DNA from: Kiritimatiellia bacterium
GTDB taxonomy: Bacteria > Verrucomicrobiota > Kiritimatiellia > RFP12 > UBA1067
Direction: 5' to 3'
Assembly: GCA_051884915.1 (NCBI GenBank)
Contig: JBJEWF010000004.1
Location: forward strand, 243-64,242
DNA length: 64,000 bases
Shown here: in pieces, positions 7,731-60,684 of the stretch
Numbering within the stretch: the first letter of the stretch is position 1
Layout of the letters: every line of letters starts with the position of its first letter
Notes under the pieces: generated by a model
What the model saw: the letters and a program-made list of their open reading frames with translations, nothing else
The model's database searches: none
Told to the model about the DNA's origin: nothing
Translations under genes and position numbers: made by a program

Positions 7731-8837
7731 ATGAAACCGCGCTACCGCAAACTCTACGACCGCCTCAAGGCGTCCATCGTCTCGGGCGCGATTCCGCCCG
7801 GCGCCCGTCTGCCGTCCAAACGGACCTTGGCGCATGAGGAGAACCTGAGCGTCATCACCGTCTCGCACGCGCTCGCGATGCTCTGCGAGGAGGGCTACGC
7901 CTGCGCGCGCGAACGCAGCGGCGTTTTCGCGGCCTACCGCGAAACGGACGACGGCGCGCCGGCGGCGCCGCCCCGGCCGGTCCGGAAAGCGCCCGGCGTC
8001 AACCGGCACCGGATCCAGGACGGCTTTCCCTGGAACGACGCGGTTCGGAAGATCCGCGCGACGCTGGCCCGCTACGGGGAACGCATTCTCATCAAGTCGC
8101 CCAACTACGGCACGCGCGAACTGCAGGAGGCGGTCGCCGACTACCTGCTGCGCGCGCGCGGCATGAAGGTGGCGGCGTCGCAGGTGGTGGTGGGGTCGGG
8201 CGCCGAATATCTCTACGGCCTTCTCGCGCAGGTGTTCCGCGGGGAGACCATCGCCATCGAGGATCCGGCCTATCCGAAAATCCGCGCGGTCTATTCGGCG
8301 CACGGCATCGACTGCGAGGCGCTCCGGCTCGCGTCGCACGGCATCGAATCGCAGACGCTCGCGTCCTCGCGCGCGCAGGTCCTCCACGTCACGCCCTACC
8401 GGAGTTTCCCGACGGGCGTGACGGCCGACGCGTCCAAACGCCGCGAATACGTCCGCTGGGCGGAGGCGCGCGACGGCTGGCTGATCGAGGACGATTTCGA
8501 CTCCGAGTTCTCCCCCCTGCGGCGCGGCGCCGAAACGCTCCACGCGATCGACGGGGGCAAGCGCGTGATCTATCTCAACACGTTCTCGAAGACGATGGCC
8601 CCTTCCATGCGCGTCGGCTACCTCGTCCTGCCGAAGGGACTCGCCCGGCGCTTCACCGAGCGCGTCGGCTTCTACTCCTGCACGGTGCCGGTGCTGGACC
8701 AGCTCTTTCTGGCGGACTTCATCAACGACGGCGATTTCGAGCGCCATCTCAATCGCCTCCGGCGGCTCTACCTCAAAAGGTCGCGGGCGCGCGCAAGCGA
8801 CGCCGGCGTGGGCGCGGAAACCCCGTCGAGGCGGTAG
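7731..8837 (+). CDS. pdxR: MocR/GntR-family PLP-dependent transcriptional regulator, PdxR-like
   Basis: N-terminal GntR wHTH (YRKLYDRLKASIVSG...LPSKRTLA) plus an aminotransferase-like domain. Divergent from pdxST. I prefer the ATG at 7731, because the upstream in-frame ATGs lie in AT-rich intergenic sequence. Confidence 0.75.
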   Translation: MKPRYRKLYDRLKASIVSGAIPPGARLPSKRTLAHEENLSVITVSHALAMLCEEGYACARERSGVFAAYRETDDGAPAAPPRPVRKAPGVNRHRIQDGFPWNDAVRKIRATLARYGERILIKSPNYGTRELQEAVADYLLRARGMKVAASQVVVGSGAEYLYGLLAQVFRGETIAIEDPAYPKIRAVYSAHGIDCEALRLASHGIESQTLASSRAQVLHVTPYRSFPTGVTADASKRREYVRWAEARDGWLIEDDFDSEFSPLRRGAETLHAIDGGKRVIYLNTFSKTMAPSMRVGYLVLPKGLARRFTERVGFYSCTVPVLDQLFLADFINDGDFERHLNRLRRLYLKRSRARASDAGVGAETPSRR

Positions 8838-9487
8838 GCCAGCCCCAGGTTCCGCCACTTCGCCGCGCCCAGCGCATGATAGGGCAGCACGTCCACCCGC
8901 ACCACGTTGGGCAGCGTGCGGATGAACGCGCCCAGGCGGCGCAGATCGTCCGCGTCGTCCGTGACCCCCGGCACCAGCACGTGGCGGATCCAGACGGGCT
9001 TGCCGATTCCGGCCAGATAGCGCGCGCAGGCGAGAACCGGTTCGTTCCCGCATCCCGTGAGGGCGCGATGCCGCGCGCCGTCAATGTGCTTGAGATCCAG
9101 GAGAACGGTGTCGGCGGCCGCCAGGAGACGGCGAATCGCGTGGTCCTCGGCGGCGAACGGCCCGGCGGCGGTGTCCAGGCAGGTGTTGACGCCGGCGGCG
9201 TGAGCCAATTCGAAGAGTTCGGCCGCGAACGCGGCCTGCTGCATCGGTTCGCCGCCCGAAACCGTGATGCCCCCGTCGCTTCCCCAGTAGGCCCGGTAGC
9301 GCAACGCCCGCTCCAGCGTCTGGGCCGCCGTCATCGCGAAAGCCGCCGGACGCGCCCACGTGTCGGGATTGTGGCAATAGGCGCAGCGGAACGGGCACCC
9401 GCTCAGGAACACCAGGAAACGGACGCCGGGGCCGTCGGCCGCGGCGAACGTCTCGAAACTGTGGATCCGGCCCGTCTCCGCCGCCAT
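8768..9487 (-). CDS. pflA: Pyruvate formate-lyase activating enzyme (radical SAM)
   Basis: CxxxCxxC radical-SAM motif in GCPFRCAYCHN, about 239 aa, adjacent to pflB. Confidence 0.85.
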   Translation of the reverse strand: MAAETGRIHSFETFAAADGPGVRFLVFLSGCPFRCAYCHNPDTWARPAAFAMTAAQTLERALRYRAYWGSDGGITVSGGEPMQQAAFAAELFELAHAAGVNTCLDTAAGPFAAEDHAIRRLLAAADTVLLDLKHIDGARHRALTGCGNEPVLACARYLAGIGKPVWIRHVLVPGVTDDADDLRRLGAFIRTLPNVVRVDVLPYHALGAAKWRNLGLAYRLDGVSAPTPASLARARDLLR

Positions 9488-45606: not shown

Positions 45607-46830
45607 TCAACGCATCGCGCGGAAGATCAGACTGGTGTTGACGCCGCCGAACGCAAAGTTGTTCGTCATCGCGTACTCGCAGTCGATCGTCCGCCCCTCG
45701 CCCTGGAGATAATCCATCTCCGCGCAGGCCGGATCGACAGTCTTCAGGTTGAGCGTGGGCGGGTACCAGCCGCATTCGAGCGACTTCACCAGCATCGCCG
45801 CCTCGATGGCGCCGCAGGCGCCAAGCGTATGCCCCATGTAGCTCTTCAGCGAAGACAGCGGCACGGCCCGGTTGAAAACCGCGCGCGTCGCCATCGTCTC
45901 CGCCACGTCGCCCGCCTTCGTCGCCGTTCCATGGCCGCTCACGTAGCCGATGTCGCCGGCGGACAGGCCCGCATCGTCCAACGCGCCCTTGAGCGCGTAG
46001 GACATCGTTTCGGCGTTGGGGTTGGTCACGTGGGCGCCGTCCGTCGTCTCCGCGAATCCCACCAGTTCGGCCAGGATCCGGGCGCCCCGCGCCTGCGCGT
46101 GCCCATACTCCTCCAGCACGAACGTCGCCGCGCCATCGCCCACGACCAGTCCGTCGCGGCCGGCATCGTACGGCGCCGGGGACGCCTTCGGGCAATCGTT
46201 CTTCAGCGAGGTTGCGTAGAGCGTGTCGAAAATCGCGACCTGGGTGGCGCTGAATTCCTCCGCGCCGCCGGCCAGCATCACGTCCTGAACGCCCCAGCGG
46301 ATCAGTTCGGCGGCATTGCCGAGCGCGAGCGAACCGCTGGTGCAGGCGGTCCCCGTCGGGACAAGACGGCCGTGCGTCTTGAAATGGACCGACAGGTTGC
46401 ACGCGGTCGTCTGCGGCATCAGTTTGATGTAGGTTCCGCTGGTGATGCCCGCGATCTCCTTCGTCTTGAGCATCGAATAGAAATCCAGCAGGGCGGGAAT
46501 CGAGCCGGAGCAGGAACCGTAGGCCACGCCCGTGCGGCCACTCTGGAGCAGGGCGTCGTCAAGCCGCGCCTGGGCGATGGCCTGCTCCGTGGCCGCCAAT
46601 GCGTACATCGCCACCTCGCCCATGGTCCGCGTGGTCTTGCGATTCCAGTGCGCCGGCCGCTCAAACGCCGTCGGACAGCCCAGACGCGTGTTCAATCCCC
46701 TGTACGCGGCGAGTTCCGGCAACGCCTGCACGCAGTTTTCCAGTTTTCTCAATCGCGCGAACGCCGTCTCGATGTCATTTCCGATCGGGGAGACAATCCC
46801 CATGCCCGTCACTGCAACTCGTCTCTTCAT
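45607..46830 (-). CDS. Beta-ketoacyl-ACP synthase (KAS I/II-like) with intact Cys-His-His triad
   Basis: Active-site motifs GTACTSGS, SGHGTAT, MGHTLGACG. Start MKRRVAVTGMGIVSP at 46830. Confidence 0.85.
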   Translation of the reverse strand: MKRRVAVTGMGIVSPIGNDIETAFARLRKLENCVQALPELAAYRGLNTRLGCPTAFERPAHWNRKTTRTMGEVAMYALAATEQAIAQARLDDALLQSGRTGVAYGSCSGSIPALLDFYSMLKTKEIAGITSGTYIKLMPQTTACNLSVHFKTHGRLVPTGTACTSGSLALGNAAELIRWGVQDVMLAGGAEEFSATQVAIFDTLYATSLKNDCPKASPAPYDAGRDGLVVGDGAATFVLEEYGHAQARGARILAELVGFAETTDGAHVTNPNAETMSYALKGALDDAGLSAGDIGYVSGHGTATKAGDVAETMATRAVFNRAVPLSSLKSYMGHTLGACGAIEAAMLVKSLECGWYPPTLNLKTVDPACAEMDYLQGEGRTIDCEYAMTNNFAFGGVNTSLIFRAMR

Positions 46831-46899
46831 CTCGCGTTTTCCCACTCTCGCACATGCGGCCGGAGGCCGCCGTCCATCCAACGATCCAGAATGCCCCGT

Positions 46900-47631
46900 C
46901 TAGAACAGCCCGCCATTCACGGAAATGACCTGCCGCGTCACGTAGGACGCCTCCTCGCGGAACAGAAACGCCACCACGCCGGCCACTTCGTCGGGCGTGC
47001 CGAAGCGGCGCATCGGAATCGCCTTCTTCACCTCCTCCGGGAACGCGATCGAATGGGCCATTTCCGTTTCGATCACGCCCGGCGCCACGGCGTTCACCGT
47101 GATGCCGCGTTTCGCCAATTCGACGGCCAGGGCCTTGACGGCGCCGATGATGCCGGCCTTGGCCGCCGAATAGTTGACCTGCCCGCGATTCCCCGCGATT
47201 CCGCTCACGCTGGAAAGGGCGACGATGCGTCCGCGAATGCGATTGGAGACCATCGGCATCACCACGGGCTTCAAGACGTTGTAGAGGCCCGTCAGGTTCG
47301 TGTCGACGACCCTGTCCCACGCGTCGCCTTCCAGAATCGGGAACGGCGCGTCGGCCGCGACTCCCGCGTTGGCGACGACGCCGTAGTACGGTCCCCGCGC
47401 CGCCATGTCCGCCTCAAGGGCCGCCGCCACCGCGGCGCGGTCGGCCAGATCGAAAACCAGAACCGGCTGTTCGGGCCGGTTCGCCAGCGCCGCGCAGGCG
47501 GCGGCGGTTTCACGCGCCGCCGCCGCGTTTTTCACGGCGTGCGCCACCACGGCAAAACCGTCCTTTGCCAAACGCAGGGCAATCGCCTTGCCGATCCCCC
47601 GCGAAGCCCCTGTCACAAGAACCCGTTTCAT
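46900..47631 (-). CDS. 3-oxoacyl-ACP reductase FabG-like (SDR)
   Basis: MKRVLVTGASRGIGKAIA Rossmann N-terminus. Catalytic YxxxK (YSAAKAG). 243 aa. Confidence 0.85.
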   Translation of the reverse strand: MKRVLVTGASRGIGKAIALRLAKDGFAVVAHAVKNAAAARETAAACAALANRPEQPVLVFDLADRAAVAAALEADMAARGPYYGVVANAGVAADAPFPILEGDAWDRVVDTNLTGLYNVLKPVVMPMVSNRIRGRIVALSSVSGIAGNRGQVNYSAAKAGIIGAVKALAVELAKRGITVNAVAPGVIETEMAHSIAFPEEVKKAIPMRRFGTPDEVAGVVAFLFREEASYVTRQVISVNGGLF

Positions 47632-48098
47632 GTCCGTGCCTGCTCCTTCAAGAAAACTTCCAGATCCGGCGGCCGATAGGCATTCAGAACCGCCGTGGCC
47701 ACCACCGTCCCGTCCGCCGCCGCAATCGTGCATTCGAACGCGGCCGCGTCGGCGTCGCTGAACGCGTTGACGGCCGTGATCTCGTAGGTCCGGCCCTGTT
47801 CAAACCGCTCAAGCTTCAGTTCCAGCTTGCGCGTGCCGAGCAGCAGTCCCGGCCGCGCAAGCCGGTCCGGCGCACGGGACTTGTCCCAGTACCCCGTCAG
47901 GGCCGCCGCCGTCTGCGCCATGTATTCGATCGCCACCCAGTTGGGAACGCCCTCCCCCGCCACGAAGAAGAGCTGACGTTCGTCGATCGTCACGTATGCC
48001 GTCAGCGTCTTCGCCGCCGCGTCAAAACGCCGCACGCCATCAATGAGAATCATCGGCGGCCGATGCGGCAGCAGATCTGTCAGCGCCCATTCACCCAT
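47628..48098 (-). CDS. Hotdog-fold 3-hydroxyacyl-ACP dehydratase (FabZ/ApeP-like)
   Basis: LPHRPPMILIDGV motif of FabZ-type dehydratases. 156 aa. Overlaps both neighbouring genes by 4-8 nt. Confidence 0.75.
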   Translation of the reverse strand: MGEWALTDLLPHRPPMILIDGVRRFDAAAKTLTAYVTIDERQLFFVAGEGVPNWVAIEYMAQTAAALTGYWDKSRAPDRLARPGLLLGTRKLELKLERFEQGRTYEITAVNAFSDADAAAFECTIAAADGTVVATAVLNAYRPPDLEVFLKEQART

Positions 48099-49192
48099 TT
48101 TCCGCCACCATCGCCACGCAGGCGTTCGAACCGCCGAACGCGAATGAATTGGAGAGCGCGGCGCCCGCCACCGCCCCCGAAGACAGATACAGCCAGCACA
48201 GCGCCGCTTCGACGGCGCCCGCCGCGCCGAGGCAGTGTCCCGTCATCGCCTTCGTGGACTCCACCCGCGGCAGCGTCCCGAAAATCCGCCGGACGGCCTT
48301 CATCTCCATGGCGTCGTTCGCCGGCGTCCCCGTGCCATGCAGGTTCACGTAGCCGACGTCCGCCGGAACAAGACCGCCCTCCGCCAGCGCCGCGCGCATC
48401 GCCGCCTCCGCGCCGCGCCCTTCCGGATCGGGGGCCGTCGCGTGGTAGGCGTCGCTTGTCTCGCCGCAGCCCACCACGGCCACGGTGCGGCCGGCTCCGG
48501 GCGCGGGAGACGGCTCCATGAGGAACAGGGCCACGCCCTCCCCCAGATTGATGCCGTCGCGGTCCGCGGCCAGCGGCCGGCAATGCCCCTGCGCCAACGC
48601 GCCGAGGGCGTGGAACCCGTTCATCGCGAACCGGCAGCGCCCGTCGACGCCGCCGACCACGACCGCGTCGGCCACGCCCGCCGCCATCAGACGGTGCGCC
48701 GCGCCGAAGACCTTGGCGCTCGAACTGCAGGCCGTGGAAACCGTATAGGCCGGTCCCTCGATGCCCAGCAGACGTTTCAGATAGTCCGAAGGCGTCCCCA
48801 GCTCGATCTGCGAAAAGTCCAGCCCCCGCGGCTTCGTCCCCGTCTCCAGCCAGTCCCCCACAAACCGCTGGGCCTCGTCGATTCCCGTATTGGACGCGCC
48901 CAGCACGATGGCGATGCGCGCGGCCGGATGACGCGCCCTGAAGGCGTCCAACGCCGGCCGGAAATTGGAGACGGCATGCAGCAGCAGGCGATTCGACCGG
49001 AAATCGAACTCGGGTTCATCGATTTCGGGCAATTCGCCCGGCACCATGCCGAAGAGAATCGTCCGCCCGGGAACGTCCGACGGCAGCGGCACCAGTCCCG
49101 CAACCGATCCCCGAAGTCCGTTCGCAAGCACTTCTTCATTCGTCCGGCCGAGTGCGCATGCGCACGAAAGACCCGTCAGATGACAACGCATA
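48091..49192 (-). CDS. Second beta-ketoacyl-ACP synthase with intact Cys-His-His triad
   Basis: VSTACSSS, LHGTGTPAND, MTGHCLGAAGA motifs. Start MRCHLTGLSCACALG at 49192; the longer ORF-track start is rejected. Confidence 0.8.
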
Positions 49193-49241
49193 CCGTCCTG
49201 ATGCTCTTCGCTTCTGTTCGCCCCGTGGCCGGACGGCATCG

Positions 49242-51541
49242 TCACCATTGAATCGCTTCCGCCCGGGTGATGTATTTGTCCTGTTCGGACTTCGGCAGGT
49301 CGTTCCAGCGGACGTTCCATCCGCACACGCGGACCTGCAGATCCTCGTACTTCTCCGGGTGCCGCTGCGCGTCCTTCAGCTCCTCGGCGCTGAACACCGT
49401 GAACTGGACGACGCTGCCGCCGTTCGCGTGAAAGACCCGCACCACGGTCTTCATCGCCTCGCGGCCCTTCGCGCCGGAACAGGCCGACGGGTGCATCATC
49501 ACGTCCAGCGGAACGTCGCCCGGCAGGTCCTCCACGCTGACCGAGCTTAGCGTCTGGACGAGCGCCGTCACCCCCTCCGTGTCCATGCCCATGGTCGGCG
49601 AGAGGTTCTTGGACATCTCTTCGCCTTTTCGGCGGCCGTCCGGCGTCGCGCCCGTCTTCGCCCCCAGCTCGATGAACTGGCGCGCGCAGTGTCCCGCGGC
49701 GAGGAAGATCCCACCTCTGGAATTGGGCTTGCCGTTGATTTCGCCGGAGAAGGTCAGGATCAGCTCGCGCCCGAGCGCGTTGGCCTCGGGGTCGTTGTTG
49801 CCCCACTTGCGCTTCGAGCGCAGCATCCGCAGGCGCAGGGACTCGTGGCCCGCCCAGTCCGCCGCCATCGCTTCGCCCAGCCCGGCCAGCGTCAGCTCCC
49901 GCCGTTCGTAGACGATCTCCTTCACGGCCAGCAGCGCGTCGACCGCGGTGCCGAGGCCCACGCCCAGGATCTCCGTGTGGTTTCCGTGCGGACATCCATC
50001 GGCGAAGCCGTCCTTGCGGTGCCGCAGCGCGAATTCGGTCGCGAGCGTCATGCAGTTCGCGGGGTTGACCTCCGCCAGCACCTTCTCGGATTCGAAGGTG
50101 ATGTCGCGGCAGCGCACCGTCACGTCCGCCAGACGGCGCAGATATTCGGCCTTGAACTCCGGGAACGTCGCCGCCGCGAACGTTCCCGCTTTCGCGTCCG
50201 CCAGCAGCTTCTCGACCGGTTTGAGGTAGCTGAGGTAGCCCATGATCGTGGTGTTCGCGCTGTCGCGCAAAGCGAATTCGTAGCAGCCGATCAGGACCAT
50301 CGTGCGGCAGTCCTCGTCCGACGCGTGGCACCATTGCTTCAGCGCCTTCGCCGCCGGCTCTTCGCCGATGAACGCCAGCGACCGGTGGCGGCGCGCCATG
50401 TCCACCAGCTTGTCCATCACCCAGTCCGGCGTGTTCGGCGCGATCTTCACCAGGAACTTCGGCGACGTGAGGTTGCACGCGTCCGCGACTTCGAGAATGA
50501 TCCGCGAGACGTGGTTGAACTCCGTGGTGCCGTCCGCCTTCGTGCCGCCCAGGCCGATCGGATGGTTCCAGTAGTTGGCGATCGAGCCCCACTGCCAGAA
50601 GAAATGCTTGAGCTGTTCGCGGAATTCGGCCTCAGTCGTCCGCCCGGCGGCAAGGTCCGCCTCGTAGTAGGGGGTGAGGAAGACGTCGAGTTCCGTCAGC
50701 GACCGGCACTGGACGGCATCCATGTGCTCCGAGTAGAAGAAATACAGCCACACGAACATCAGCATGTCGTAGGCGGTCTGCGGCTTGCCGGTCTGCAGCC
50801 GCTCCAGACAGGCGATTTCCTTGGCGAGCCGCCCCGCGGCGTCGCCCTTCGCGAGATTCCGCTGCGCCTGCCGCTTGAACCGGTCGATTCCCGCGAGCAT
50901 CGCGTCCATGGCGATCCGCAAGCTCTCGTAGAACGGATCGTCGCGCCCGTTCGCCTTCGCATACCGCTCCAGCCGCGCCTGCATGCCCGGATAGCCGAGG
51001 GCGAGGATCGCGCGCCAGTCCGGAACCGAGTGGTCGAAATCCTGCCACAGGTGCCAGTCGCCGTCGCGGTTGCCCTCCCGCCAGGCGCGACGGACCCAGT
51101 CCGGCAGCCGGCGCGCGTTCACTTCGCCGGCGCGCGCGCCGATGATGGCGTTCATCGGACGGTCCCAGCGGTTCCAGATGGCGATGGCGGGGAACCAGTC
51201 GAACGCCGAGACGTCAATCGCCTGGCGCGTGACGAGACAGGCGAAGCACTTCGCCTTGGTGATGCGCCACGGCTCGGCTGCGGCCTTGCCGGCGGCGACG
51301 ATTTCCTTCAGGGCCGCCTTCAGCGCCGGCACGGCGAGTCCGGTGGACCTGTCCGTCACGTCCTGCCGGAATTTGCGGCGCAGATAGGTGTCCACGTCGG
51401 CAATATGGGGAACGAACGGATCCCAGTAGGTCATGTCGATGAAAGACCTGGCCAGCAGCGAACCCGGCGCACCGCAGACCACCACGCCCGAGGCGAGTCC
51501 GAGAAAGCCTCGACGCGTATAAGCATAAGCGTTTGTCATGT
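49242..51541 (-). CDS. Divergent glycyl-radical enzyme (PFL2/dehydratase-type) with predicted twin-arginine (Tat) N-terminal leader
   Basis: C-terminus aligns with the PFL glycyl-radical domain (HPEKYEDLQVRVCGWNVRWNDLPKSEQDKYITRA against [25 protein letters not shown] of the window's own PflB). Single catalytic Cys in a GCYE motif. N-terminus is MTNAYAYTRRGFLGLASGVVVCGAPGSLLARS. Confidence 0.75.
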
Positions 51542-51682
51542 CCACATGATACCATTTAACGGGTCCGAAGGCAATGGTGCGCGGTTCCGGGGGCGGGCGG
51601 GGGCGGCGACGAAGCGGCGCGCGGGCACTCCCTGCGGCGCGAAGAGGGCAAAAGGGCGAACGTCCGCATCGGCCCGCCCGCC

Positions 51683-51721
51683 GGCCCAAAAACGAAGAAA
51701 CCCAAACGCGCGTTTGGGTTT
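51683..51721 (-). terminator. Rho-independent terminator following the orphan tRNA 3' fragment
   Basis: Perfect 12-bp-stem hairpin AAACCCAAACGC/GCGTTTGGGTTT (51698-51721), followed on the minus strand by a U-rich run (CUUCGUUUUUGGG). Confidence 0.55.
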
Positions 51722-51734
51722 CAACGTCTTGGAT

Positions 51735-51790
51735 TGGTGCGACTGACTGGGATCGAACCAGCAACCTTCGGCTTCGGAGAACAAATCGGG
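51735..51790 (-). other. Orphan tRNA (or tmRNA) 3'-half fragment; putative attachment-site remnant at the prophage boundary
   Basis: Minus strand reads ...GGTTGCTGGTTCGATCCCAGTCAGTCGCACCA: T-stem-loop, 7-nt acceptor 3' strand, discriminator, CCA. No D-arm or complementary 5' acceptor strand upstream, so it is not an intact tRNA. Confidence 0.45.
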
Positions 51791-51830
51791 ACCGCGTTTT
51801 ATTGGAGAATAGCCCTACTGTGCATATTCT

Positions 51831-51840
51831 GTGCTATAAT
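51831..51840 (+). promoter_or_regulatory. Candidate extended -10 promoter (TGcTATAAT) upstream of the integrase gene
   Basis: gTGcTATAAT at 51831-51840. No good -35. Confidence 0.3.
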
Positions 51841-51916
51841 TGGCACCGTTAAGCGCGGAACTATACCATAGAAGGACATGGACACGCACGCGAGAGCAGA
51901 AACGGAGCGAAACGAA

Positions 51917-53059
51917 ATGAAACGGACAAACGGGAGCGGAACGCTCTACAGAAGGACGGGCAGCGACATCTGGTACACGAGAATCCTCATCGGCGGGAAA
52001 TGGGTGCGGAAGTCTACCGGCGAGACGGACCGCGCAAAGGCCGAGAAGATTCTGGACGAATACGCCACCGGCCACGACCTTCCAGACGACGCGCGGCTGG
52101 CGGCGGTCGAGGCGATCCTCAAGGCACGGCGCAGCCATTCGCCGACATTCGCCGAGGCATGGGACCTCTACACGCGCCACCCGAAGAACGCGGACCAGAG
52201 CCAGGGCGCGCAAGGAATCGACCTCGGACGCTGGCGCGTTTTCACCCGCTGGGCCGGAGGATATCAGGGCGGCGACCGTTGCCGAATCAACCAGGACGCC
52301 GCGCACCCGGAAGTCGAACGGCTCGAAGACGTGACCCAGGACATCGCAAGTGAGTTTGTCGCCTGGGCACGCGGAACGGTGTCACCGTCAACCGTCAACC
52401 GATACATCCGCGTCTGTCGCCGAATCTGGGACTTTGCGAAGGCCGAACGGAATCCCTGGGTGGACTTCCCTCACCTCAAGACGGACGCACAGAAGCGGAG
52501 ACGTCTCACGCCGGAAGAACTCACGCGGCTCATTGAATCGGCCACGGGCGAAATGCGGACGCTTTTCGTGATCGGAGCCTACACGGGACTCCGCCTGGGC
52601 GACGCGGCCCATGTGACCTGGGAACAAGTCGACGCGGCGGCTGGAATCATACGGCTACGCCCGCACAAGACGATCTACTCCGCCGGAACCTGGGTCCACC
52701 TGCCAATGCACCGCGTTCTCTCCCGCCAGCTCGGGAAGCCGAAGAAGCGCGGATACGTCACGCCCGAAATGGCGTCGTGGCCTCAATGGAAGTTGAGCGA
52801 CGCGGCCCAGGCCCACTTCGAGGTATGCGGACTTGCAGAAAGACGCAAGGCGGACGGCTACAAGCGCCACACGGCGGTCGTCGGTTTCCATTCGCTGCGG
52901 TCCACGTTCGTCTCTCTCATGGTGGACGCTGGCGTGCCGCTGGCCATCGTCCGGGCGCTTGTCGGACACGTCGACGAGGAGATCACCCTGCGCTACTACC
53001 GCATGGAGGAGGAGCGGGCACGGGCGGAAATCGACAAGCTGCCCGACTTCACGGCGTAA
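51917..53059 (+). CDS. int: Tyrosine-type site-specific integrase (phage integrase family)
   Basis: N-terminus MKRTNGSGTLYRR. C-terminal catalytic motifs HSLRSTFVSL...GH...LRYY. The ORF-track start at 51878 is an upstream extension. Confidence 0.9.
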   Translation: MKRTNGSGTLYRRTGSDIWYTRILIGGKWVRKSTGETDRAKAEKILDEYATGHDLPDDARLAAVEAILKARRSHSPTFAEAWDLYTRHPKNADQSQGAQGIDLGRWRVFTRWAGGYQGGDRCRINQDAAHPEVERLEDVTQDIASEFVAWARGTVSPSTVNRYIRVCRRIWDFAKAERNPWVDFPHLKTDAQKRRRLTPEELTRLIESATGEMRTLFVIGAYTGLRLGDAAHVTWEQVDAAAGIIRLRPHKTIYSAGTWVHLPMHRVLSRQLGKPKKRGYVTPEMASWPQWKLSDAAQAHFEVCGLAERRKADGYKRHTAVVGFHSLRSTFVSLMVDAGVPLAIVRALVGHVDEEITLRYYRMEEERARAEIDKLPDFTA

Positions 53060-53067
53060 AACCGCTT

Positions 53068-53277
53068 TCAGAGTTCAGACGGATCGATATCGGCGTCGCG
53101 CAGGATTTTACGGAGCAGCCCGACATGAAGCGGACGGGATCCGTGAGCGGGAACCGTGATCAGCGTCGCCACTCCGGGCTTTTTGAACTGCATATGGCTG
53201 CCGTCTTTCATGCGGGCAAGCGACCAGCCTCGAATATTCAGCTCATGGGCGAGCTGCCTGGCGTTCAACTGCTTCAT
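53068..53277 (-). CDS. hicA: HicA-family mRNA interferase toxin
   Basis: 69 aa. ...GWSLARMKDGSHMQFKKPG...TVP... matches the HicA (YcfA-like) signature. Confidence 0.8.
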   Translation of the reverse strand: MKQLNARQLAHELNIRGWSLARMKDGSHMQFKKPGVATLITVPAHGSRPLHVGLLRKILRDADIDPSEL

Positions 53278-53474
53278 ACGAGAACGCTGGCAACCTCGGC
53301 GCCGTCCGGGACCTCGAACGAGTTGAGGCCCTCAAGGTGGAAGCTGATCGCCTTGCGGAGATTCTCACGAAGCTCCTCAAGCGTGTCTCCGCTCGAATAG
53401 CACCCGGGCAGGGCCGGAACCTCAGCCCAGAAAGACCCGTCCTCGCGGCGGACTATGGCTTTGTACTGGCACAT
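53274..53474 (-). CDS. hicB: HicB-family antitoxin (short UPF0150-only form)
   Basis: 66 aa. ...EDGSFWAEVPALPGCYSSGDTLEELRENLRKAISFHLE matches the HicB N-domain. Overlaps hicA by 4 nt. Confidence 0.75.
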   Translation of the reverse strand: MCQYKAIVRREDGSFWAEVPALPGCYSSGDTLEELRENLRKAISFHLEGLNSFEVPDGAEVASVLV

Positions 53475-53689
53475 TGGATGGTTTATACCTCAGTTTCGAT
53501 TCTGTTCAGTTCGCAAAAAACGCGGCTATGATACCACAACCGAGGACGTGACGCAACCGGGACAAGCCCTGAAATCACCCACTCGGAACGCCCCGCCGAA
53601 CGCCCAGGAAAATGCTTCGCGGACACTTCGCGCGAAATATCGCAAAATGTTAATTATAGCTCTTGCACAGCGTACACAGCGCGATGCTT

Positions 53690-53729
53690 CGCAACCCTAA
53701 GTTTTTATAATATAAAAACTATAGGGTTG
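53690..53729. repeat. 40-bp near-perfect palindrome GCAACCCTAAGTTTTTATAAT/ATAAAAACTATAGGGTTGC in AT-rich non-coding DNA
   Basis: The arms are reverse complements apart from a 1-nt indel. AT-rich core contains TATAAT in both orientations. Confidence 0.6.
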
Positions 53730-54166
53730 CAAAGTATGCGCGCAAACTGTACCCCCACCCCTTAACTGTAAATTCAATATACGCAGTCGAGCACCCCTAC
53801 AGTACCCCTGGACTCCTACAGAACAGAACAACACAAGACGCTCACGGAAAAAGACCAACGGCAGCATGCCCCCCAACCCTACCCTTCCCACGCCCGGAGA
53901 TGCGTCGGCGTGGCTGCGAGGGCCTGAAAGATTCTCATGGGCGACACTTGACGGGCGGCGTCGCCGTGGTAGAAAGCACGAAGCAGGTCGCGGATCTTGC
54001 GTTTGCATGAAGCGCATCGACCTCATCCGCACAATTACCGAAAAATGCGCCGTATTTGTCCGCAATGGACACGACCACGACTGGTACCGAAATGTCGTGA
54101 CAGGCTGTCTTTCAGCCGTTCCACGCCACCGTTAGAGCGGTTGTAGAAAAAATATGAAAAAATCAT

Positions 54167-54195
54167 AAAAACCATATTGACGGTGTAAAACACCT
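54167..54195 (+). promoter_or_regulatory. Perfect sigma70 promoter TTGACG-N17-TATAAT with the 13-bp palindromic operator GGTGTAAAACACC occupying the spacer (operator copy O1, 54172-54184)
   Basis: -35 at 54167-54172, -10 at 54190-54195. An AGGA RBS and the first ribbon-helix-helix gene follow at 54239. Confidence 0.6.
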
Positions 54196-54238
54196 ATGGT
54201 ATAATACGCGCCACAAAGACCAAAACAGGAACATCAAA

Positions 54239-54427
54239 ATGCCGAACAAACGAAAGCAAGGAAAGAAGTTGGTAGCCGGATGGCTACAAAGTGGTGATGC
54301 CGAAGAGTTCAAGGATCGTGCCGCAGAATTGGGCATGACCACAACCGATTTGCTGACACTTCTAATCCGAGAGGAATTGAAGCGTAGCAACCGCACAAAC
54401 ACAAATCCAACCGAAAGGAATGCCTGA
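54239..54427 (+). CDS. Ribbon-helix-helix (CopG/Arc-like) DNA-binding protein 1
   Basis: 62 aa. ...AELGMTTTDLLTLLIREEL... matches the RHH helix pattern. Driven by the operator-containing promoter. Confidence 0.65.
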   Translation: MPNKRKQGKKLVAGWLQSGDAEEFKDRAAELGMTTTDLLTLLIREELKRSNRTNTNPTERNA

Positions 54428-54428
54428 A

Positions 54429-54600
54429 ATGGAAATGGAAATGCAAAACATCGAAGTGACCTTGTCCGACAAGGAAATCAAGGACTTCAACGAACTATGC
54501 GCCGAGCGCAATGTCTGCCCTGCGCAAAAAATAGGCGAACTGATACACGGGTTTATTTTGGCCGAGGGTGTAAAACACCAAATCAGAAAGACAGCATGAG
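54429..54600 (+). CDS. Ribbon-helix-helix-like small protein 2 (56 aa; absent from the ORF track because it is under 60 aa)
   Basis: MEMEMQNIEVTLSDKEIKDFNELCAERNVCPAQKIGELIHGFILAEGVKHQIRKTA has the beta-strand-then-two-helix RHH layout. Starts 2 nt after the RHH1 stop. Confidence 0.5.
54568..54580. promoter_or_regulatory. Operator copy O2 of the palindrome GGTGTAAAACACC (inside the 3' end of the second RHH ORF)
   Basis: Exact 13-bp repeat of the O1 sequence. Confidence 0.5.
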
Positions 54601-54618
54601 GTATTTTTTGACCGTGCG

Positions 54619-54631
54619 GTGTAAAACACCG
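54619..54631. promoter_or_regulatory. Operator copy O3 of the palindrome GGTGTAAAACACC, embedded in an extended inverted repeat CCGTGCGG...CCGCACGG
   Basis: Exact 13-bp repeat, 51 bp centre-to-centre from O2, immediately upstream of the RBS of the third RHH gene. Confidence 0.5.
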
Positions 54632-54663
54632 CCGCACGGCCTGAAACCTAACAGGAGCGGGAC

Positions 54664-54846
54664 ATGAGCGACGAGAAGATGATAAACGTGCCGCTGGACG
54701 ATGAGACGAAGTTCGTCCTTGAAACCAGCGCGAGGGAGAACGGACGCGCCGTAGGGCGCGAAGCCGCTATGCTGATAAAGCGCGGGCTTGCCTCATTCCG
54801 GCGCGGGCTGGAAGCGGCGGGCGCGTTGGAGCGGAAAGGCGCGTGA
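54664..54846 (+). CDS. Ribbon-helix-helix (Arc/MetJ-like) DNA-binding protein 3
   Basis: 60 aa. MINVPLDDETKFVLETSARENGRAVGREAAMLIKRGL. RBS AGGAG upstream. Confidence 0.65.
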   Translation: MSDEKMINVPLDDETKFVLETSARENGRAVGREAAMLIKRGLASFRRGLEAAGALERKGA

Positions 54847-54956
54847 CATGGAGCGCAAGGCCGCGCTTGGATCCGCCGAGGACGGAGGCGAGCCGGACGG
54901 TGAAATCAGAACTTAACCCACTACACCAACCACCCGAACCGAAAGGAACCGAACCG

Positions 54957-55298
54957 ATGACAAACCCGAACTTCCCCGAACTCGAGATCGACTGCGCCCA
55001 CTGCGTCTTCGGCTGCAGCGCGATCCGTGCGAAGAACGTCAAAGAAGGTAACAAGAAATGGACGAAGAGACTAATCGAAATCTTTGAGTGCCGTATTTTC
55101 AGGCCATCTCAGACCTCATCCTTCCCCGAGATCAACATCAACGACTGGTGCGGGTACTTCTGCGACGCGGAGACACTGGCCCGCCCCTTCGTCGGGCTGA
55201 ACGCCGCCCCGAATGATCCCGCCAAGCTCCGCCACAAGCCCGTGCAGCCGCGAAAGATCCACGCGGAGGATCAGCCGCGAGAGGAGGTGGCCGAATGA
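54957..55298 (+). CDS. Cys-rich (zinc-finger-like) hypothetical phage protein
   Basis: Motifs CAHCVFGC...C...CGYFC. Start MTNPNFPE at 54957 with a GGAACCGAACCG RBS-like region. The ORF-track start at 54843 is an extension. Confidence 0.5.
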   Translation: MTNPNFPELEIDCAHCVFGCSAIRAKNVKEGNKKWTKRLIEIFECRIFRPSQTSSFPEININDWCGYFCDAETLARPFVGLNAAPNDPAKLRHKPVQPRKIHAEDQPREEVAE

Positions 55299-55456
55299 AG
55301 CCGGAGACCGTCGAGACGCTGAAGGAAGCCGTCGGCTGCGTGGCCGTGTTCATCATCTACGTCGTTCTGGCGTGGCTTTTCCTGACCGCGACGCCGCCGC
55401 AGTTTTCTGCCGAACGCGACCTTTGCGCCGAACAGATGGAAGGGATTGCGAAATGA
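55295..55456 (+). CDS. Small (53 aa) single-TM membrane protein, ATGA-coupled to both neighbours (not in ORF track)
   Basis: MKPETVETLKEAVGCVAVFIIYVVLAWLFLTATPPQF... The start overlaps the previous stop and the stop overlaps the next start. Confidence 0.4.
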   Translation: MKPETVETLKEAVGCVAVFIIYVVLAWLFLTATPPQFSAERDLCAEQMEGIAK

Positions 55457-55632
55457 CGAAGGCGGAAGCAATCATCGTGCTGCAGAAGATCCACGACCGC
55501 TGCCCTTCGTCGTACCAGCGCGAGGCCGTCAACGCCGGAATCGCCGCCCTTCTCCGCTCCATCAAGTCGACGAAGGCCGCGAAGAGGAACCACATCGCAC
55601 GCGCGAAGGCCGCGAGGAAGGCTGGCGATTAA
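55453..55632 (+). CDS. Small basic hypothetical protein (59 aa)
   Basis: MTKAEAIIVLQKIHDRCPSSYQREAVNAGIAALLRSIKSTKAAKRNHIARAKAARKAGD. Translationally coupled on both sides. Confidence 0.45.
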   Translation: MTKAEAIIVLQKIHDRCPSSYQREAVNAGIAALLRSIKSTKAAKRNHIARAKAARKAGD

Positions 55633-55799
55633 TGGCAACCGAGAAGAAGCACTACCTTGTCGAGACGCACGTCGGCCCCCAGGAAACCTGGGCCACCTCT
55701 CCGAAGAAGGCAATCGCCCAGGTCCGCTACCGTCTCGTCGGCGGAGCGTTCGCCGGAACCTGCAGGACAACATACTGGACCGTGAAGGAGATCGCATGA
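55632..55799 (+). CDS. Small hypothetical protein (55 aa)
   Basis: MATEKKHYLVETHVGPQETWATSPKKAIAQVRYRLVGGAFAGTCRTTYWTVKEIA. TAATG overlap with the upstream gene and ATGA overlap with the downstream gene. Confidence 0.45.
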   Translation: MATEKKHYLVETHVGPQETWATSPKKAIAQVRYRLVGGAFAGTCRTTYWTVKEIA

Positions 55800-56098
55800 A
55801 GACCGCCGCCAACCTTCCAGACATCAAGTGCAAGTTCGACGCAATCGTCGACGCACTGGAACAGAAGATCCGCGAACTTCGGACCTTCGCCGCGGACAAC
55901 CTGGCGCAGCCAGTCGCAGTCAACGGCGCGACGGAACAGATTATCAGCGTCGCGGACGCAGCCGAGGTCCTCTCGAAGTCTACGAAGACCGTCCTCCGCT
56001 ATTGCCGCGCCGGAAGTCTCAAGGCGTACAAGGCCCCAGGCGCGAAGCTCACGACGGGCGTCTACCTCTCGTCGCTGAACGCCCTGCTGAACGATTAA
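55796..56098 (+). CDS. HTH DNA-binding protein (excisionase/MerR-like HTH)
   Basis: ...ISVADAAEVLSKSTKTVLRYCRAGSLKAYK is a helix-turn-helix typical of Xis/AlpA-like proteins. 100 aa. Confidence 0.55.
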   Translation: MKTAANLPDIKCKFDAIVDALEQKIRELRTFAADNLAQPVAVNGATEQIISVADAAEVLSKSTKTVLRYCRAGSLKAYKAPGAKLTTGVYLSSLNALLND

Positions 56099-56114
56099 CC
56101 AACCACAAAAGGAG

Positions 56115-56498
56115 ATGCAGATGCACACGAACAACATCTTGAAGGAAATCCGACAGGAGAAAATCGGGAAGTGGCTCCAGGCGGTGAAGAAGAACACCGA
56201 CCTGCTGCTGGCGTTCCCCGTCGATCCGGTCGAGCACGAGGCCGTGGCCGAATTCCGGGAGAGCGTCGCTTACAAGATCGGCTGGCTTTCCGAGTACCTG
56301 GCGACGGGCAAGTGGAACTTCTTCGCCGATCAGAACATCGGAAGCCCGATGACGATCCAGATCGACGCCGAACGCGCCGAGGAACCCCACGACGAAGCCT
56401 CCGACGCCGAACGCGCCGCCGCAATGGACGCGGCGACGGAAGCCGAAGCCGCCGAGGAAGCCGCCCTGGCCCAGGCGAAGCAGGAAGCGGAGGCGTGA
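56115..56498 (+). CDS. Hypothetical phage protein with acidic Ala/Glu-rich C-terminus
   Basis: 127 aa. No recognisable motif. Confidence 0.45.
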   Translation: MQMHTNNILKEIRQEKIGKWLQAVKKNTDLLLAFPVDPVEHEAVAEFRESVAYKIGWLSEYLATGKWNFFADQNIGSPMTIQIDAERAEEPHDEASDAERAAAMDAATEAEAAEEAALAQAKQEAEA

Positions 56499-56499
56499 C

Positions 56500-57096
56500 A
56501 TGGACGAGACCTTCAAGGGCGCCGGCATCCAGGCGAAGCTCTCCTACATCCAGGTGAATCTCCGCGTTCCGAAGGATATGGACGTGAAGAACTGGCAGGG
56601 GAAGACGCAATATCAGTACCGCAACCTCTCCAGCATCTTCGAGAAGGTGAAGCCGCTGCTGGAGCAGACCGGCTGCAATCTCAAGATCGTCGACGAGACG
56701 CCGGTCGTCGTCGGCGGAGACATCACGCCCGTCTTCGAGACCGTCAAGAACAAGAACGGGAACACGTCGCAGCGTATGCTCGTCGGCCCCCGCATCTACA
56801 TCCGCGCCCACGCAATTCTCACGGACATTGAGACCGGCGAGAGCGTCGAGGCGGTCCGCAACGCACGCGAGACCGAATGGCGGACTGGAATGGATCCCGC
56901 GCAGCTCACGGGCGCGACCTCGAGCTACGCGGGCAAGTACGCCGCCGAGGCGCTTTTCGGCCTTGACGGATCCGACGACGCCGACGCGCTGGCCGCAAAG
57001 GAGAACGCGCCCAGGACGGGCGGCGTGAGGCGGACCTACTTCGGCCAGTACAAGGACGCCATCGCCGCCTCGCAGGACGAAGCCCCCAATTTTTAA
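56500..57096 (+). CDS. erf: ERF-family single-strand annealing protein
   Basis: ...TGMDPAQLTGATSSYAGKYAAEALFGLDGSDDADA closely matches the recalled P22 Erf core (KGMDAAQVTGATSSYARKYCLNGLFGIDD). Confidence 0.8.
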   Translation: MDETFKGAGIQAKLSYIQVNLRVPKDMDVKNWQGKTQYQYRNLSSIFEKVKPLLEQTGCNLKIVDETPVVVGGDITPVFETVKNKNGNTSQRMLVGPRIYIRAHAILTDIETGESVEAVRNARETEWRTGMDPAQLTGATSSYAGKYAAEALFGLDGSDDADALAAKENAPRTGGVRRTYFGQYKDAIAASQDEAPNF

Positions 57097-57121
57097 CCAC
57101 AACCCCAAAAGGGAAAACGAC

Positions 57122-58156
57122 ATGAGCAAGAAAGACACAGAGGCGGCACCCGCCGCAATCCACGACCCCTTCGGCGGATCCAAATGGCCGGCGTTCTCGG
57201 TCTCCCCGGCGTTCCGTGGTGCCGACGGAACCTCGAAGGAAGCGCAGAGCGGTACCCGCGCCCACATCGCAATGGCGGTATTCACGGGCAACTCCGGAGC
57301 GACGCGCGAGGACGTCCAGGCCGAGATCAAGAAGGTGAAGGACGTGTACCGCACGAAGCTCACCGACGAGGAGATCGAGATCGCCCGCTGGGCCGTCGGC
57401 GTGAAGAAGCACTACGCCAAGGGCCGCGAACTCCACCCCGAGACGACGACGAAGATCGACGCGCCCGCGCTTGCGAACATCCACGGCATCGAGGGCACGG
57501 CGGACGACTGGTGCCTGGGCGCGGACGGTGAGCCGCCGATCATCTTCGACCTCAAGAGCGGGGCGCGTGAATTCCCCGAGCGGAAGTTCGAGCAGTTTGT
57601 CTGCTACGCTGCCGGGCTTATGTCCACGGCCCCGGAGTTCGCGGAAGCCGCCGCCGCCGCCGACTACAAGGTGCGCTTCATCGCCCTTCTCGGTGGCGCG
57701 AGGTCCGCCGTCGAGACCACGGTGGACATCAACGCGGCGGCGGAACGCGCGAACAAGTACATCGGCGTGGCGAAGGCCGCAACGCCGGAGAGCTGCACGC
57801 CGAACCCGTCGAGCTGCGAGTACTGCAAGTTCTCGGCGGACTGCCCCGCGCGGAAGAATGACGCCGACGCGGCTGCAAAGGAGTCCGGCATCATCCAGGC
57901 CGGTTGCGAGTACGTCCCGATGGCGAAGCTTGACACGCCGAACGCCCTGCTCCGCCTCAAGGGCGTCGCCGCGTTCTTCGACGCGGCCAAGAAGCAGATC
58001 CAGGCCGACAGGCTTGACGGCATCATGGCCAGCGAGGACTGGAAGAGGCACACTGCTGCGCTGAAGGACCTCGCCGCAACGGCTAACTTCGAGGGCGCGG
58101 GCGGCGTCGCCGTCAAGTTCATCGTCAAAATCTCCACCGAGGTCCGCATCGGATGA
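57122..58156 (+). CDS. PD-(D/E)xK nuclease, Cas4/RecB-like, with C-terminal Cys cluster (CX6CX2CX5C); probable recombination exonuclease partner of ERF
   Basis: GTADDW...IIFDLKSG nuclease core. The CTPNPSSCEYCKFSADC Cys cluster is a putative Fe-S site. Confidence 0.6.
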   Translation: MSKKDTEAAPAAIHDPFGGSKWPAFSVSPAFRGADGTSKEAQSGTRAHIAMAVFTGNSGATREDVQAEIKKVKDVYRTKLTDEEIEIARWAVGVKKHYAKGRELHPETTTKIDAPALANIHGIEGTADDWCLGADGEPPIIFDLKSGAREFPERKFEQFVCYAAGLMSTAPEFAEAAAAADYKVRFIALLGGARSAVETTVDINAAAERANKYIGVAKAATPESCTPNPSSCEYCKFSADCPARKNDADAAAKESGIIQAGCEYVPMAKLDTPNALLRLKGVAAFFDAAKKQIQADRLDGIMASEDWKRHTAALKDLAATANFEGAGGVAVKFIVKISTEVRIG

Positions 58157-58224
58157 ACCGATTCGGGGAGAACATCCACAAGTCATTCTGCCCGATTCTG
58201 GGCGCAACAAAGAAGGAGCCACAC

Positions 58225-58776
58225 ATGAAGATCGAAATCGAGAACGCGGAAGTGACCCGCGTCTGGGAGAACACGCGCGGACAGTACACCGACTACTGCC
58301 TCAACGTCAAGTTCATGGACGGGAAGTTCGACAACTTCCTCTGCCTGAAGTCGAAGGATTCCGGCGTATTCGCCGACATCCACGAAGGCGACATCATCGA
58401 GAAGGCGACCGTGTACATCAATGGCCGCGCCTGGGAATCCCCGAAGGACGGACAGGTCGTGTTCTGCGACTTCAAGGTGGCGAGCCGACAGAGCATCACG
58501 TTGAAGGCGGCGGTGGCGAAGAAGCCGATCCTTGCGTGCGACTGGAAGGCCGCGCAGCTTGCGTTCATCGAAGCAAAGGGCCTTGGCGATTCTAGCGCGG
58601 ACGAGATCAAGAAGGCGTTCGGCGAGTTCTGCAAATCGACGATCCCCGGCAAGGCCGCGAAGGACTACAAGCCGGTCGACTGGGCGACCATCCACAACGC
58701 CGCGACGGGCGCGAAGGAAGAGACTCAGGAAGAGGCCGCGCCGGACTTCGGCGACCTCGACGACCTGCCGTTCTAA
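58225..58776 (+). CDS. Putative phage single-stranded DNA-binding protein (divergent OB-fold) with SSB-like acidic C-terminal tail DFGDLDDLPF
   Basis: Start MKIEIEN at 58225 with an AAGGAG RBS. C-terminal ...EEAAPDFGDLDDLPF mimics the SSB DDDIPF protein-interaction tail. Confidence 0.5.
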   Translation: MKIEIENAEVTRVWENTRGQYTDYCLNVKFMDGKFDNFLCLKSKDSGVFADIHEGDIIEKATVYINGRAWESPKDGQVVFCDFKVASRQSITLKAAVAKKPILACDWKAAQLAFIEAKGLGDSSADEIKKAFGEFCKSTIPGKAAKDYKPVDWATIHNAATGAKEETQEEAAPDFGDLDDLPF

Positions 58777-58852
58777 ACTTGCTGGGCCTCGCAGATCACC
58801 CAGGACCAAAACGATCTGCACCACTTTTCAGCCGAAACTAAACGAGACGAAC

Positions 58853-60463: not shown

Positions 60464-60684
60464 CGAACGCCGAGAAGTTCAGCACGCCAGCCGTGAAAAT
60501 CGCGCATTTCGCCGACTACATCGCCACGTCGGACGGCTTCAAGGCCATTAAAATCGCACGCGACAACCTCGGCATGAGCGAAATCGCCGCCACCAATCTC
60601 GTCTTCTCCGCCTGGCTCACAACCGAAGCCGCGCCCGAAGACGCCACCGAAACCGAAAACCCCGAATGGGAGACCACAAAGTGA
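60460..60684 (+). CDS. Hypothetical phage protein (74 aa)
   Basis: Coupled ORF (start overlaps the rusA stop). No motif recognised. Confidence 0.4.
   Translation: MTNAEKFSTPAVKIAHFADYIATSDGFKAIKIARDNLGMSEIAATNLVFSAWLTTEAAPEDATETENPEWETTK

Follow-up and report, generated by a model that had tools for sequence, protein, structure and literature searches.

Glycyl-radical enzymes with predicted export signals: a Tat-type leader on an eliminase-type enzyme of Kiritimatiellia and its relatives

The subject of this report is a gene on a 64,000-nucleotide (nt) stretch of DNA from a Kiritimatiellia bacterium (GenBank assembly GCA_051884915.1, contig JBJEWF010000004.1, positions 243 to 64,242), referred to below as the window. 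The product of this focal gene is a complete glycyl-radical enzyme (GRE) of the dehydratase/eliminase type and begins with a leader of the twin-arginine translocation (Tat) type. With moderate confidence, we regard the protein as a functional GRE of the 1,2-eliminase/dehydratase class that is exported by Tat in the folded state and acts on a glycan-derived substrate outside the cytoplasm; the export is a prediction. The gene and its upstream region comprise the following features.

49242..51539, minus strand: coding sequence of the signal-bearing GRE, 765 amino acids (aa), with the Pfam domains PFL-like and Gly_radical
51450..51539, minus strand: predicted signal peptide, residues 1-30, based on the model TIGR01409, the GC content of third codon positions (GC3) and disorder in the structural model
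51501..51518, minus strand: twin-arginine motif T8-R9-R10-G11-F12-L13, read directly from the sequence
50277..50288, minus strand: Cys loop G418-C419-Y420-E421, with the thiyl-radical Cys and general-base Glu of eliminase-type GREs
49314..49331, minus strand: glycyl-radical loop R737-V-C-G740-W-N742, aligning to the Gly_radical domain and to RVAGWS of PDB entry 2f3o
51546..51574, minus strand: promoter-like site TTGCCT-17 nt-TG-TATCAT, a match to the sigma-70-like consensus that ends 6 nt before the ATG
51697-51722, minus strand: terminator-like hairpin, bounding the region upstream of the GRE
about 51735-51790, minus strand: tRNA 3' remnant, likewise bounding this upstream region

To our knowledge, GREs and their radical-SAM (S-adenosylmethionine) activases are regarded as strictly cytoplasmic, and we know of no GRE or GRE activase that is a Tat substrate. 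The reason lies in the requirements of these proteins, which need SAM, a low-potential reductant and protection from oxidants. The first-pass annotation of the window had called a signal-bearing GRE highly unusual, and this judgement stands: the full-text literature searched, which excludes subscription-only papers, yielded nothing on GREs or activases exported with either Tat or general secretory (Sec) signals.

The coding sequence is an open frame of 765 codons starting at 51539; the interval first assigned, 49242-51541, was 2 nt too long and, when translated as it stands, contains 25 stops. Its product is identical to an NCBI entry named 'pyruvate formate lyase family protein' from a Kiritimatiellia metagenome-assembled genome (MAG). 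A Pfam scan places the PFL-like domain (PF02901), a ten-stranded barrel, at residues 169-613, with 192.5 bits against a cut-off of 24.3, and the Gly_radical domain (PF01228) at residues 643-746, with 70.7 bits. The best NCBIfam match is TIGR01774 (PFL2-3 subfamily), at 224.4 bits and thus below its cut-off of 678.2. The score of 64.8 bits against TIGR01255 (pyruvate formate-lyase, PFL) does not reach the cut-off of 994.2, and the protein falls far under the cut-off of every curated NCBIfam GRE equivalog (HypD, CutC, HpsG and others). Taken together, the NCBIfam scores indicate that it best resembles the PFL2/glycerol-dehydratase group.

By sequence, the closest solved relatives are A. fulgidus PFL2 (2f3o, E = 6e-51), HypD, PflD, glycerol dehydratase and CutC. 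An AlphaFold2 model built from 46 family sequences (predicted local distance difference test score, pLDDT, 82; predicted template-modelling score 0.85) was compared with known structures by Foldseek. The model shares two domains and the fold, with TM-scores of about 0.8, with the eliminase GREs PflD/YbiW (8yjo/8id7), propanediol dehydratase (5i2g), HypD (6vxc), B12-independent glycerol dehydratase (1r8w) and CutC (5a0u). Further points of likeness are the radical Gly on a C-terminal loop, a G-C-x-E Cys loop with its general-base Glu and, in the relatives of the focal GRE, a radical-SAM activase partner of the PFLE/PFLC type. The differences are equally clear: the focal GRE is only about 20% identical in superposition (to PflD, propanediol dehydratase, HypD and glycerol dehydratase), lies far below the curated cut-offs and bears an N-terminal export signal, and its relatives are found fused to secreted carbohydrate-active enzymes and in glycan-degradation loci.

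The motifs listed in the first-pass annotation are all present in the translated protein: GCYE at residues 418-421, FIGEE at 390-394 and RVCGWN at 737-742. E421 aligns with the GCVE of 2f3o and HypD, so that the eliminase-type G-C-x-E is in place. Among the 120 closest homologues, G418, C419 and E421 are invariant, as are R737, C739, G740, W741 and N742, while residue 738 is either V or I; G740, C419 and E421 are also invariant in a set of 14 sequences of 44-81% identity that includes fusion proteins. The Trp that follows the radical Gly had been put forward as a novel replacement of Tyr/Phe. Judged from the sequences it is no novelty, since the solved A. fulgidus PFL2 already has it (RVAGWS, compared with RVCGWN) and RVCGW occurs in most members of the wider clade. 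PFL2 differs in having LFFDD where the focal family has FIGEE; the match to its 776-aa chain starts at residue 183, and the N-termini lie outside the comparison. The further suggestion of a possibly non-catalytic homologue is unsupported, because G740, C419 and E421 are invariant and the loci of relatives contain dedicated activases. On the residues it conserves, the focal enzyme is best read as a real, non-degenerate radical enzyme.

The N-terminus of the focal protein reads MTNAYAYT-RRGFLG-LASGVVVCGAPGSLLA, with a candidate cleavage site after SLLA30, followed by R31-S; the cleavage position was read by eye from the sequence. The Tat motif, hydrophobic core and AxA-like site described at first pass are borne out: with 20.1 bits for the first 42 residues, the sequence passes the curated cut-off (16.7) of NCBIfam TIGR01409 (TAT_signal_seq). 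In the AlphaFold2 model, residues 1-50 show no structure (pLDDT < 50). A lipoprotein signal was considered for the stretch VVVC22G, but this is a poor lipobox, and its Cys is not conserved beyond the closest relatives.

Several lines of evidence bear on the start codon. GC3 is 0.40 in codons 1-15, 0.85 in codons 16-35 and 0.86-0.91 thereafter (window GC 66%), and the high value in codons 16-35 implies that the hydrophobic core is coding in this frame. The earlier remark that the first codons are atypical holds for the low value in codons 1-15, but this is not unusual, as other genes of the window begin with GC3 values of 0.47-0.93. The promoter-like site ends so close to the ATG that transcription would start at or next to the start codon, and the mRNA may have little or no leader; ahead of ATG1 there is no evident Shine-Dalgarno sequence. 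Two such promoter-like sites, defined by consensus match only, occur in 600 nt, compared with 0.2 expected from shuffles. The hairpin and the tRNA remnant imply that the frame cannot begin further upstream. An internal start, either at Met36 (MTYWDPF), which had been offered as the possible true start, or at GTG19/GTG20, is rejected on the strength of GC3, the position of the promoter-like site and the retention of T-R-[RK]-x-F-L in orthologues.

N-termini of homologues were classified by a home-made rule that asks for a stretch of 11 or more uncharged residues whose mean hydropathy is at least 0.9 and which has a K or R before it; in the Tat-like class, (RR|RK|KR)-x-hydrophobic-hydrophobic abuts this stretch. 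Applied to the 120 closest homologues (66-100% identity, all named ones from Kiritimatiellae), the rule returns 88 Tat-like, 7 Sec-like, 2 hydrophobic and 23 'none' calls, and at least 20 of these 23 are gene calls begun at a Met within the hydrophobic core. A search for orthologues that keep the RR motif, proposed at first pass, thus finds RR or RK in 88 of 120. Nearly all members of this set show M-x(1-4)-T-R-[RK]-x-F-[LIV], an uncharged core of 13-20 residues, an A-x-A-like site and then basic residues; motif and core are kept at the protein level in about 108 of the 120, though the surrounding sequence varies. In a distant, signal-less clade (at most 41% identity), 103 of 108 sequences are scored 'none'. 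Together with GC3 and the promoter-like site, this comparison indicates that the Tat-type leader is a translated part of the focal protein, conserved across the family.

The wider family was surveyed by a scan with one genome per species, which gave 79 loci (L numbers below), with flanks of up to 10 kb fetched on each side. Nearly all are from gut or rumen MAGs labelled Kiritimatiellae, Verrucomicrobia (an older label) or Lentisphaerae; for one Lentisphaerae MAG the source is not stated. Many of the genomes have three or four GRE paralogues, sometimes in tandem. At L003, L007, L019, L031, L053, L055 and L066, two or three paralogues that differ in subfamily and signal type are arranged in tandem or only a few kb apart. 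Read from the DNA, the N-termini of the focal clade (60-84% identity) are mostly Tat-like, with ordinary Sec-like signals instead in L019, L022, L023 and L024. In three other subfamilies (43-55% identity) the N-termini are Sec-like or short and hydrophobic, and the GREs of L026, L036, L050, L080 and L084 lack a signal. Nearly the whole clade thus carries a Tat-like or Sec-like signal and is predicted to be extracytoplasmic.

Gene fusions point in the same direction. An exhaustive search of representatives at 50% identity found relatives (46-54% identity, or 32% for a GH78 fusion) in which the GRE domain forms the C-terminal part of proteins of 940-1560 aa. The N-terminal part consists of a signal peptide followed by an AXE1 (acetyl-xylan esterase), SASA acetylesterase, 3-keto-disaccharide-hydrolase, GH2 mannosidase-like or GH78 rhamnosidase domain. 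Fusions of this kind were found again on several independent contigs; a cluster look-up gave no names for the proteins. The database entries concerned are P0123-P0127, P0129 and P0189, with an 840-aa N-terminal part without Pfam match in P0124. Long N-terminal extensions are also seen on the GREs of L037, L020, L044 and L075.

The great majority of the genes that neighbour family GREs encode signal-bearing glycan enzymes: GH2, GH28 with glucuronoyl esterase, GH97, SASA, lectin-like and GDE-like proteins. When the open reading frames (ORFs) of all loci were clustered, and GRE shadow ORFs set aside, only three neighbours recurred in at least 13 loci, namely a dedicated activase, an AraC-PAS regulator in divergent orientation (17 loci) and a secreted protein of 600-1200 aa and of no known family, which lies upstream of the GRE in 13 loci. 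The latter is predicted to be all-beta; it has no match in Pfam or to PDB sequences, only three homologues were found, and its AlphaFold2 model (pLDDT 39) is unusable. It may function as a partner of the GRE. In most of the 13 loci (L003, L005, L009, L010, L015, L020, L055, L066, L070 and others) it is encoded upstream on the same strand, and in six genes directly so (6-140 nt). No conserved gene for a periplasmic ferredoxin, flavodoxin or other accessory protein was present among the clustered ORFs. An EamA transporter beside the activase of L005 was considered as a SAM exporter and dropped, as it does not recur among the neighbours.

Signals of the same style, with RR or RK, occur on Gfo/Idh/MocA-like proteins and metallophosphatases in family loci. 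RR and RK alternate among orthologous ORFs, both metallophosphatase-like (L012, L019, L027, L035) and Gfo/Idh/MocA-like (L043, L048, L070). To judge from these sequences, R-K may be an accepted natural variant of the twin arginine in this lineage.

The dedicated activase is a 250-aa radical-SAM protein of the PFLE/PFLC type (TIGR02494, 229 bits compared with a cut-off of 174). It retains CxxxCxxC as well as the motif GCPLxCxWCHNPE, and its gene is found in the fetched flanks of 36 of the 79 loci, plus L005, usually on the same strand as the GRE and 6-500 nt away. About 22 of these activases have an N-terminal extension of their own, of about 27 residues and with the motif T-R-[RK]-x-F; examples are MNRREFIGSSAAFAVAPLFAAGG... 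and MRITRKEFMALATAFAVSPMLAEDG... Extended activases are found, among others, in L014, L032, L034, L037, L040-L042, L053, L055, L057-L059, L061-L063, L073, L076, L077 and L079. In 22 of 22, an in-frame start codon, nearly always ATG, lies a few codons upstream of the motif, and in five of the 22 there is no alternative in-frame start, so that here the extension is necessarily translated. In an independent database search with one signal-bearing activase, the 120 closest homologues are 269-296 aa long; all have the extension, with RR or RK in 113. The label 'Tat-like' rests for activases on the RR/RK-x-F motif and the home-made rule. A predicted export of an Fe-S, SAM-dependent activase is in itself unexpected.

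The signals of the two partners can be compared directly when each activase is matched with the nearest GRE. The pairs fall into the following classes.

GRE Tat-like, activase none: 6 pairs
GRE Tat-like, activase Tat-like: 1 pair (L014)
GRE Sec-like or hydrophobic, activase Tat-like: 16 pairs
GRE none, activase none: 4 pairs
GRE none, activase Tat-like: 1 pair (L012)

In L031 and L053, short hydrophobic GRE N-termini were scored 'none' by the rule, and the activases are Tat-like. With L024 included, where the activase is 6 kb off, at least one partner is Tat-like in 27 of 27 signal-bearing pairs. Such complementarity is what real transport predicts. It is expected because an Fe-S activase can exit only in the folded state, via Tat: a GRE exported unfolded by Sec works only if an activase waits outside, and a GRE exported folded by Tat can either be activated beforehand or bring its activase along as a passenger. 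In the focal clade, the members in which the GRE has lost its Tat-like signal, L012 (GRE none) and L024 (GRE Sec-like), are those with Tat-like activases, and therefore the complementarity is not just the result of one ancient split.

In the window itself, the surroundings of the focal gene include the following features.

8768..9487, minus strand: PflA, the sole GRE activase of the window (TIGR02493, 276.9 bits; cut-off 231.75)
9500-12019, minus strand: canonical cytoplasmic PFL (TIGR01255, 1120.8 bits; RVSGYAV), with PflA directly downstream
45607..49248, minus strand: fatty-acid/aryl-polyene-like genes for a ketosynthase, an ApeP-like dehydratase (hot-dog), a short-chain reductase and a second ketosynthase

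PflA has no signal, shares 31% identity with the family's dedicated activase and lies about 40 kb from the focal GRE, of which it is a possible activator. One genome thus holds both an ordinary PFL/PflA pair and a signal-bearing GRE. The fatty-acid-like genes, identified from gene calls and Pfam families on identical contigs, are co-directional with the GRE and directly downstream of it, the first called start overlapping the GRE stop by 7 nt. Ketosynthase, ApeP and reductase genes are in none of the related family loci; a functional tie to the GRE was rejected on this ground, and the linkage is genome-specific and probably incidental.

On the other side, the tRNA remnant is a 25-nt T-arm/acceptor/CCA string that occurs once in the window and is not called as a tRNA by ARAGORN or Rfam. 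Beside it lies an integrase-like ORF (51878-53059, plus strand; translation read by eye), from which a stretch of lower GC content extends to the end of the window (52-66% per 1-kb step, mostly below the 63-70% of the 8 kb to the left). About 12 kb beyond the remnant contain many short plus-strand ORFs. The stretch from 51697 to 64000 resembles an integrated phage or island of which only one end falls within the window. Elsewhere in the window are a GH106 alpha-L-rhamnosidase (13951-16626, minus strand) and a 1334-aa signal-bearing protein (373-4377, minus strand) with homologues near family GREs in L023 and L037. Taken as a whole, the window leans towards glycan degradation.

Tat components are encoded close to family GREs in two rumen genomes that carry orthologues of the focal GRE. 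In L008, tatA/B (PF02416) and tatC (PF00902, 175 bits) are at 19812-21109, about 8 kb downstream of the GRE; in L021, a TatC match at 17979-18758 is also about 8 kb downstream. This proximity may be a coincidence. Probing the 64-kb window with E. coli TatA and TatC gave no match. For K. glycovorans, the type strain of the phylum, the Tat system has been reported, together with many predicted sulfatases, 35% of them with signal peptides (PMC5148204).

If the focal GRE is indeed a Tat substrate, the following sequence of events can be proposed. The GRE would fold in the cytoplasm, where a radical-SAM activase would place the radical on Gly740; in relatives this would be the dedicated, signal-less PFLE/PFLC-type protein encoded beside the gene, and in this window PflA is the only candidate. 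The Tat translocase would then export the folded GRE, possibly with a bound activase as passenger. In an anoxic periplasm or at the cell surface, the enzyme would act on a glycan-derived substrate alongside secreted esterases and glycosidases, with Cys419 as the thiyl radical and Glu421 as the base. Export, the order of activation and export, and the substrate are all inferred.

A number of observations weigh against this proposal. All export signals of the family are predictions, and the division into Sec-like and Tat-like follows a home-made rule. Pfam TAT_signal (PF10518), a shorter model, does not report the focal N-terminus; most family GREs have R-K rather than R-R and fail TIGR01409, and of ten activase N-termini only one reaches the cut-off of that model. 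The complementary pairs are related sequences, and their counts overstate the number of independent events. The 64-kb window contains no dedicated family activase, and its local context, with fatty-acid-like genes and an integrated element, is unlike the loci of relatives. The backbone radical would need to outlast transport, and its renewal outside would require activase, SAM and reductant at that site; no SAM source or electron donor for periplasmic activation is found among the conserved neighbours. Finally, Sec-like paralogues cannot be pre-activated, and the family-wide picture therefore needs periplasmic activation. The hardest problem is how such paralogues would acquire a radical outside the cell, where neither SAM nor electrons have a known source.

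Known systems provide partial precedents. E. coli hydrogenase-2 (HybOC) and DmsAB are cofactor enzymes exported by Tat with 'hitchhiker' co-export. The focal family resembles such enzymes in the S/T-R-R-x-F-L motif, the weakly hydrophobic core and the basic residues near the cleavage site, and the cargo would likewise first be folded or matured in the cytoplasm. As in hitchhiker pairs, only one partner bears a Tat-like signal in all Tat-like GRE/activase pairs but L014. The difference is that the 'cofactor' of the focal enzyme would be a protein backbone radical and not a metal centre. A second precedent is the anaerobic sulfatase-maturating enzyme (anSME), a cytoplasmic radical-SAM enzyme that modifies a sulfatase, which is then exported for glycan degradation. 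In the scheme proposed for the focal GRE, too, a protein modified by cytoplasmic radical-SAM chemistry would later leave the cell interior to degrade glycans; however, formylglycine is stable and covalent, whereas a glycyl radical is reactive and oxygen-labile, and in the focal GRE family the maturase itself often has an export signal. In GRE microcompartments (GRMs), N-terminal encapsulation peptides are employed, and the likeness consists in N-terminal targeting extensions on both GRE and activase. GRM extensions are amphipathic helices, whereas those of the focal family are hydrophobic and signal-like with an RR/RK motif. No shell-protein families are present among the Pfam-annotated neighbours in L001 and L003-L005; an encapsulation peptide was rejected for this reason, and because the peptide is not amphipathic.

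Beyond Tat export of a pre-folded GRE, a more far-reaching possibility, which we advance tentatively and consider doubtful, is that the whole GRE-activase system is extracytoplasmic. It would then represent a new anaerobic class of 'radical carbohydrate-active enzymes' that carry out radical 1,2-elimination on glycan residues, either periplasmically or on the cell surface. The targets of cleavage or deoxygenation would be glycosidic, ester or ether C-O bonds with a neighbouring hydroxyl. In many lineages the Fe-S activase would also leave by Tat. One option would be that it is charged beforehand with SAM and an electron and serves as a one-shot activator; another would be joint export of the GRE-activase complex, in which the signal could be on either protein.

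It is unlikely, in our estimation, that the GRE stays in the cytoplasm and that its Tat-like N-terminus is vestigial or has been re-purposed, as in E. coli NarG. In variants of this idea, the N-terminus might be where a chaperone or the activase docks, or might tether the protein to the inner face of the membrane without translocation. As a matter of general knowledge, all characterised GREs are cytoplasmic and need a cytoplasmic activase, SAM and a low-potential reductant, and the focal genome has just such a cytoplasmic PFL/PflA pair. The dominance of RK variants, most of which fail TIGR01409, and the basic residues after the hydrophobic core (e.g. ...APARKQR) also fit a cytoplasmic protein. 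Close orthologues and paralogues (L019, L022-L024, other subfamilies), however, bear ordinary Sec-type signals, and other relatives are fused behind signal-bearing esterases and glycosidases. The cores of 13-20 residues are signal-like and too short for a membrane anchor. The clade also includes GRE/activase pairs without signals (L026, L036), which shows that activation as such does not depend on the N-terminus, and the complementarity between GRE and activase signals is difficult to account for unless transport occurs.

Less plausible again is an exported GRE-fold protein that lacks a glycyl radical and has been re-purposed as a non-radical catalyst or a glycan-binding module. In its favour, paralogues and fusions with Sec-type signals would have to be exported unfolded and hence could not have been activated beforehand, and neither a SAM source nor a reductant for periplasmic activation was found among the conserved neighbours. 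Against this stands the invariance of G740, C419, E421 and the whole RVCGWN loop down to 44% identity. In addition, the dedicated activases in the flanks of the 36 loci, which include loci with Sec-type GREs, retain CxxxCxxC. A mis-assigned start, with translation from Met36, GTG19 or GTG20 and an untranslated Tat-like stretch, is barely credible: the in-frame GTG codons at 19-20 and the ATG at 36, the GC3 of 0.40 in codons 1-15 and the missing Shine-Dalgarno sequence would suit it, but low early GC3 is shared with other window genes, GC3 rises to 0.85 in codons 16-35 (genome GC 0.66), the promoter-like site would put the transcript start at or beside ATG1, and about 108 of 120 homologues conserve motif and core despite divergence.

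What makes the family significant is that hundreds of gut and rumen proteins are predicted to break the cytoplasmic rule for GREs, with complementary signals on enzyme and activase and with fusions to secreted esterases and glycosidases. If export is true, this would be the first extracytoplasmic glycyl-radical chemistry, and Tat would carry either a protein-based radical or a complex of activase and enzyme. It would also suggest an oxygen-independent radical route to the breakdown of recalcitrant plant or host glycans in anoxic guts, a functional counterpart to the oxidative enzymes of aerobes.

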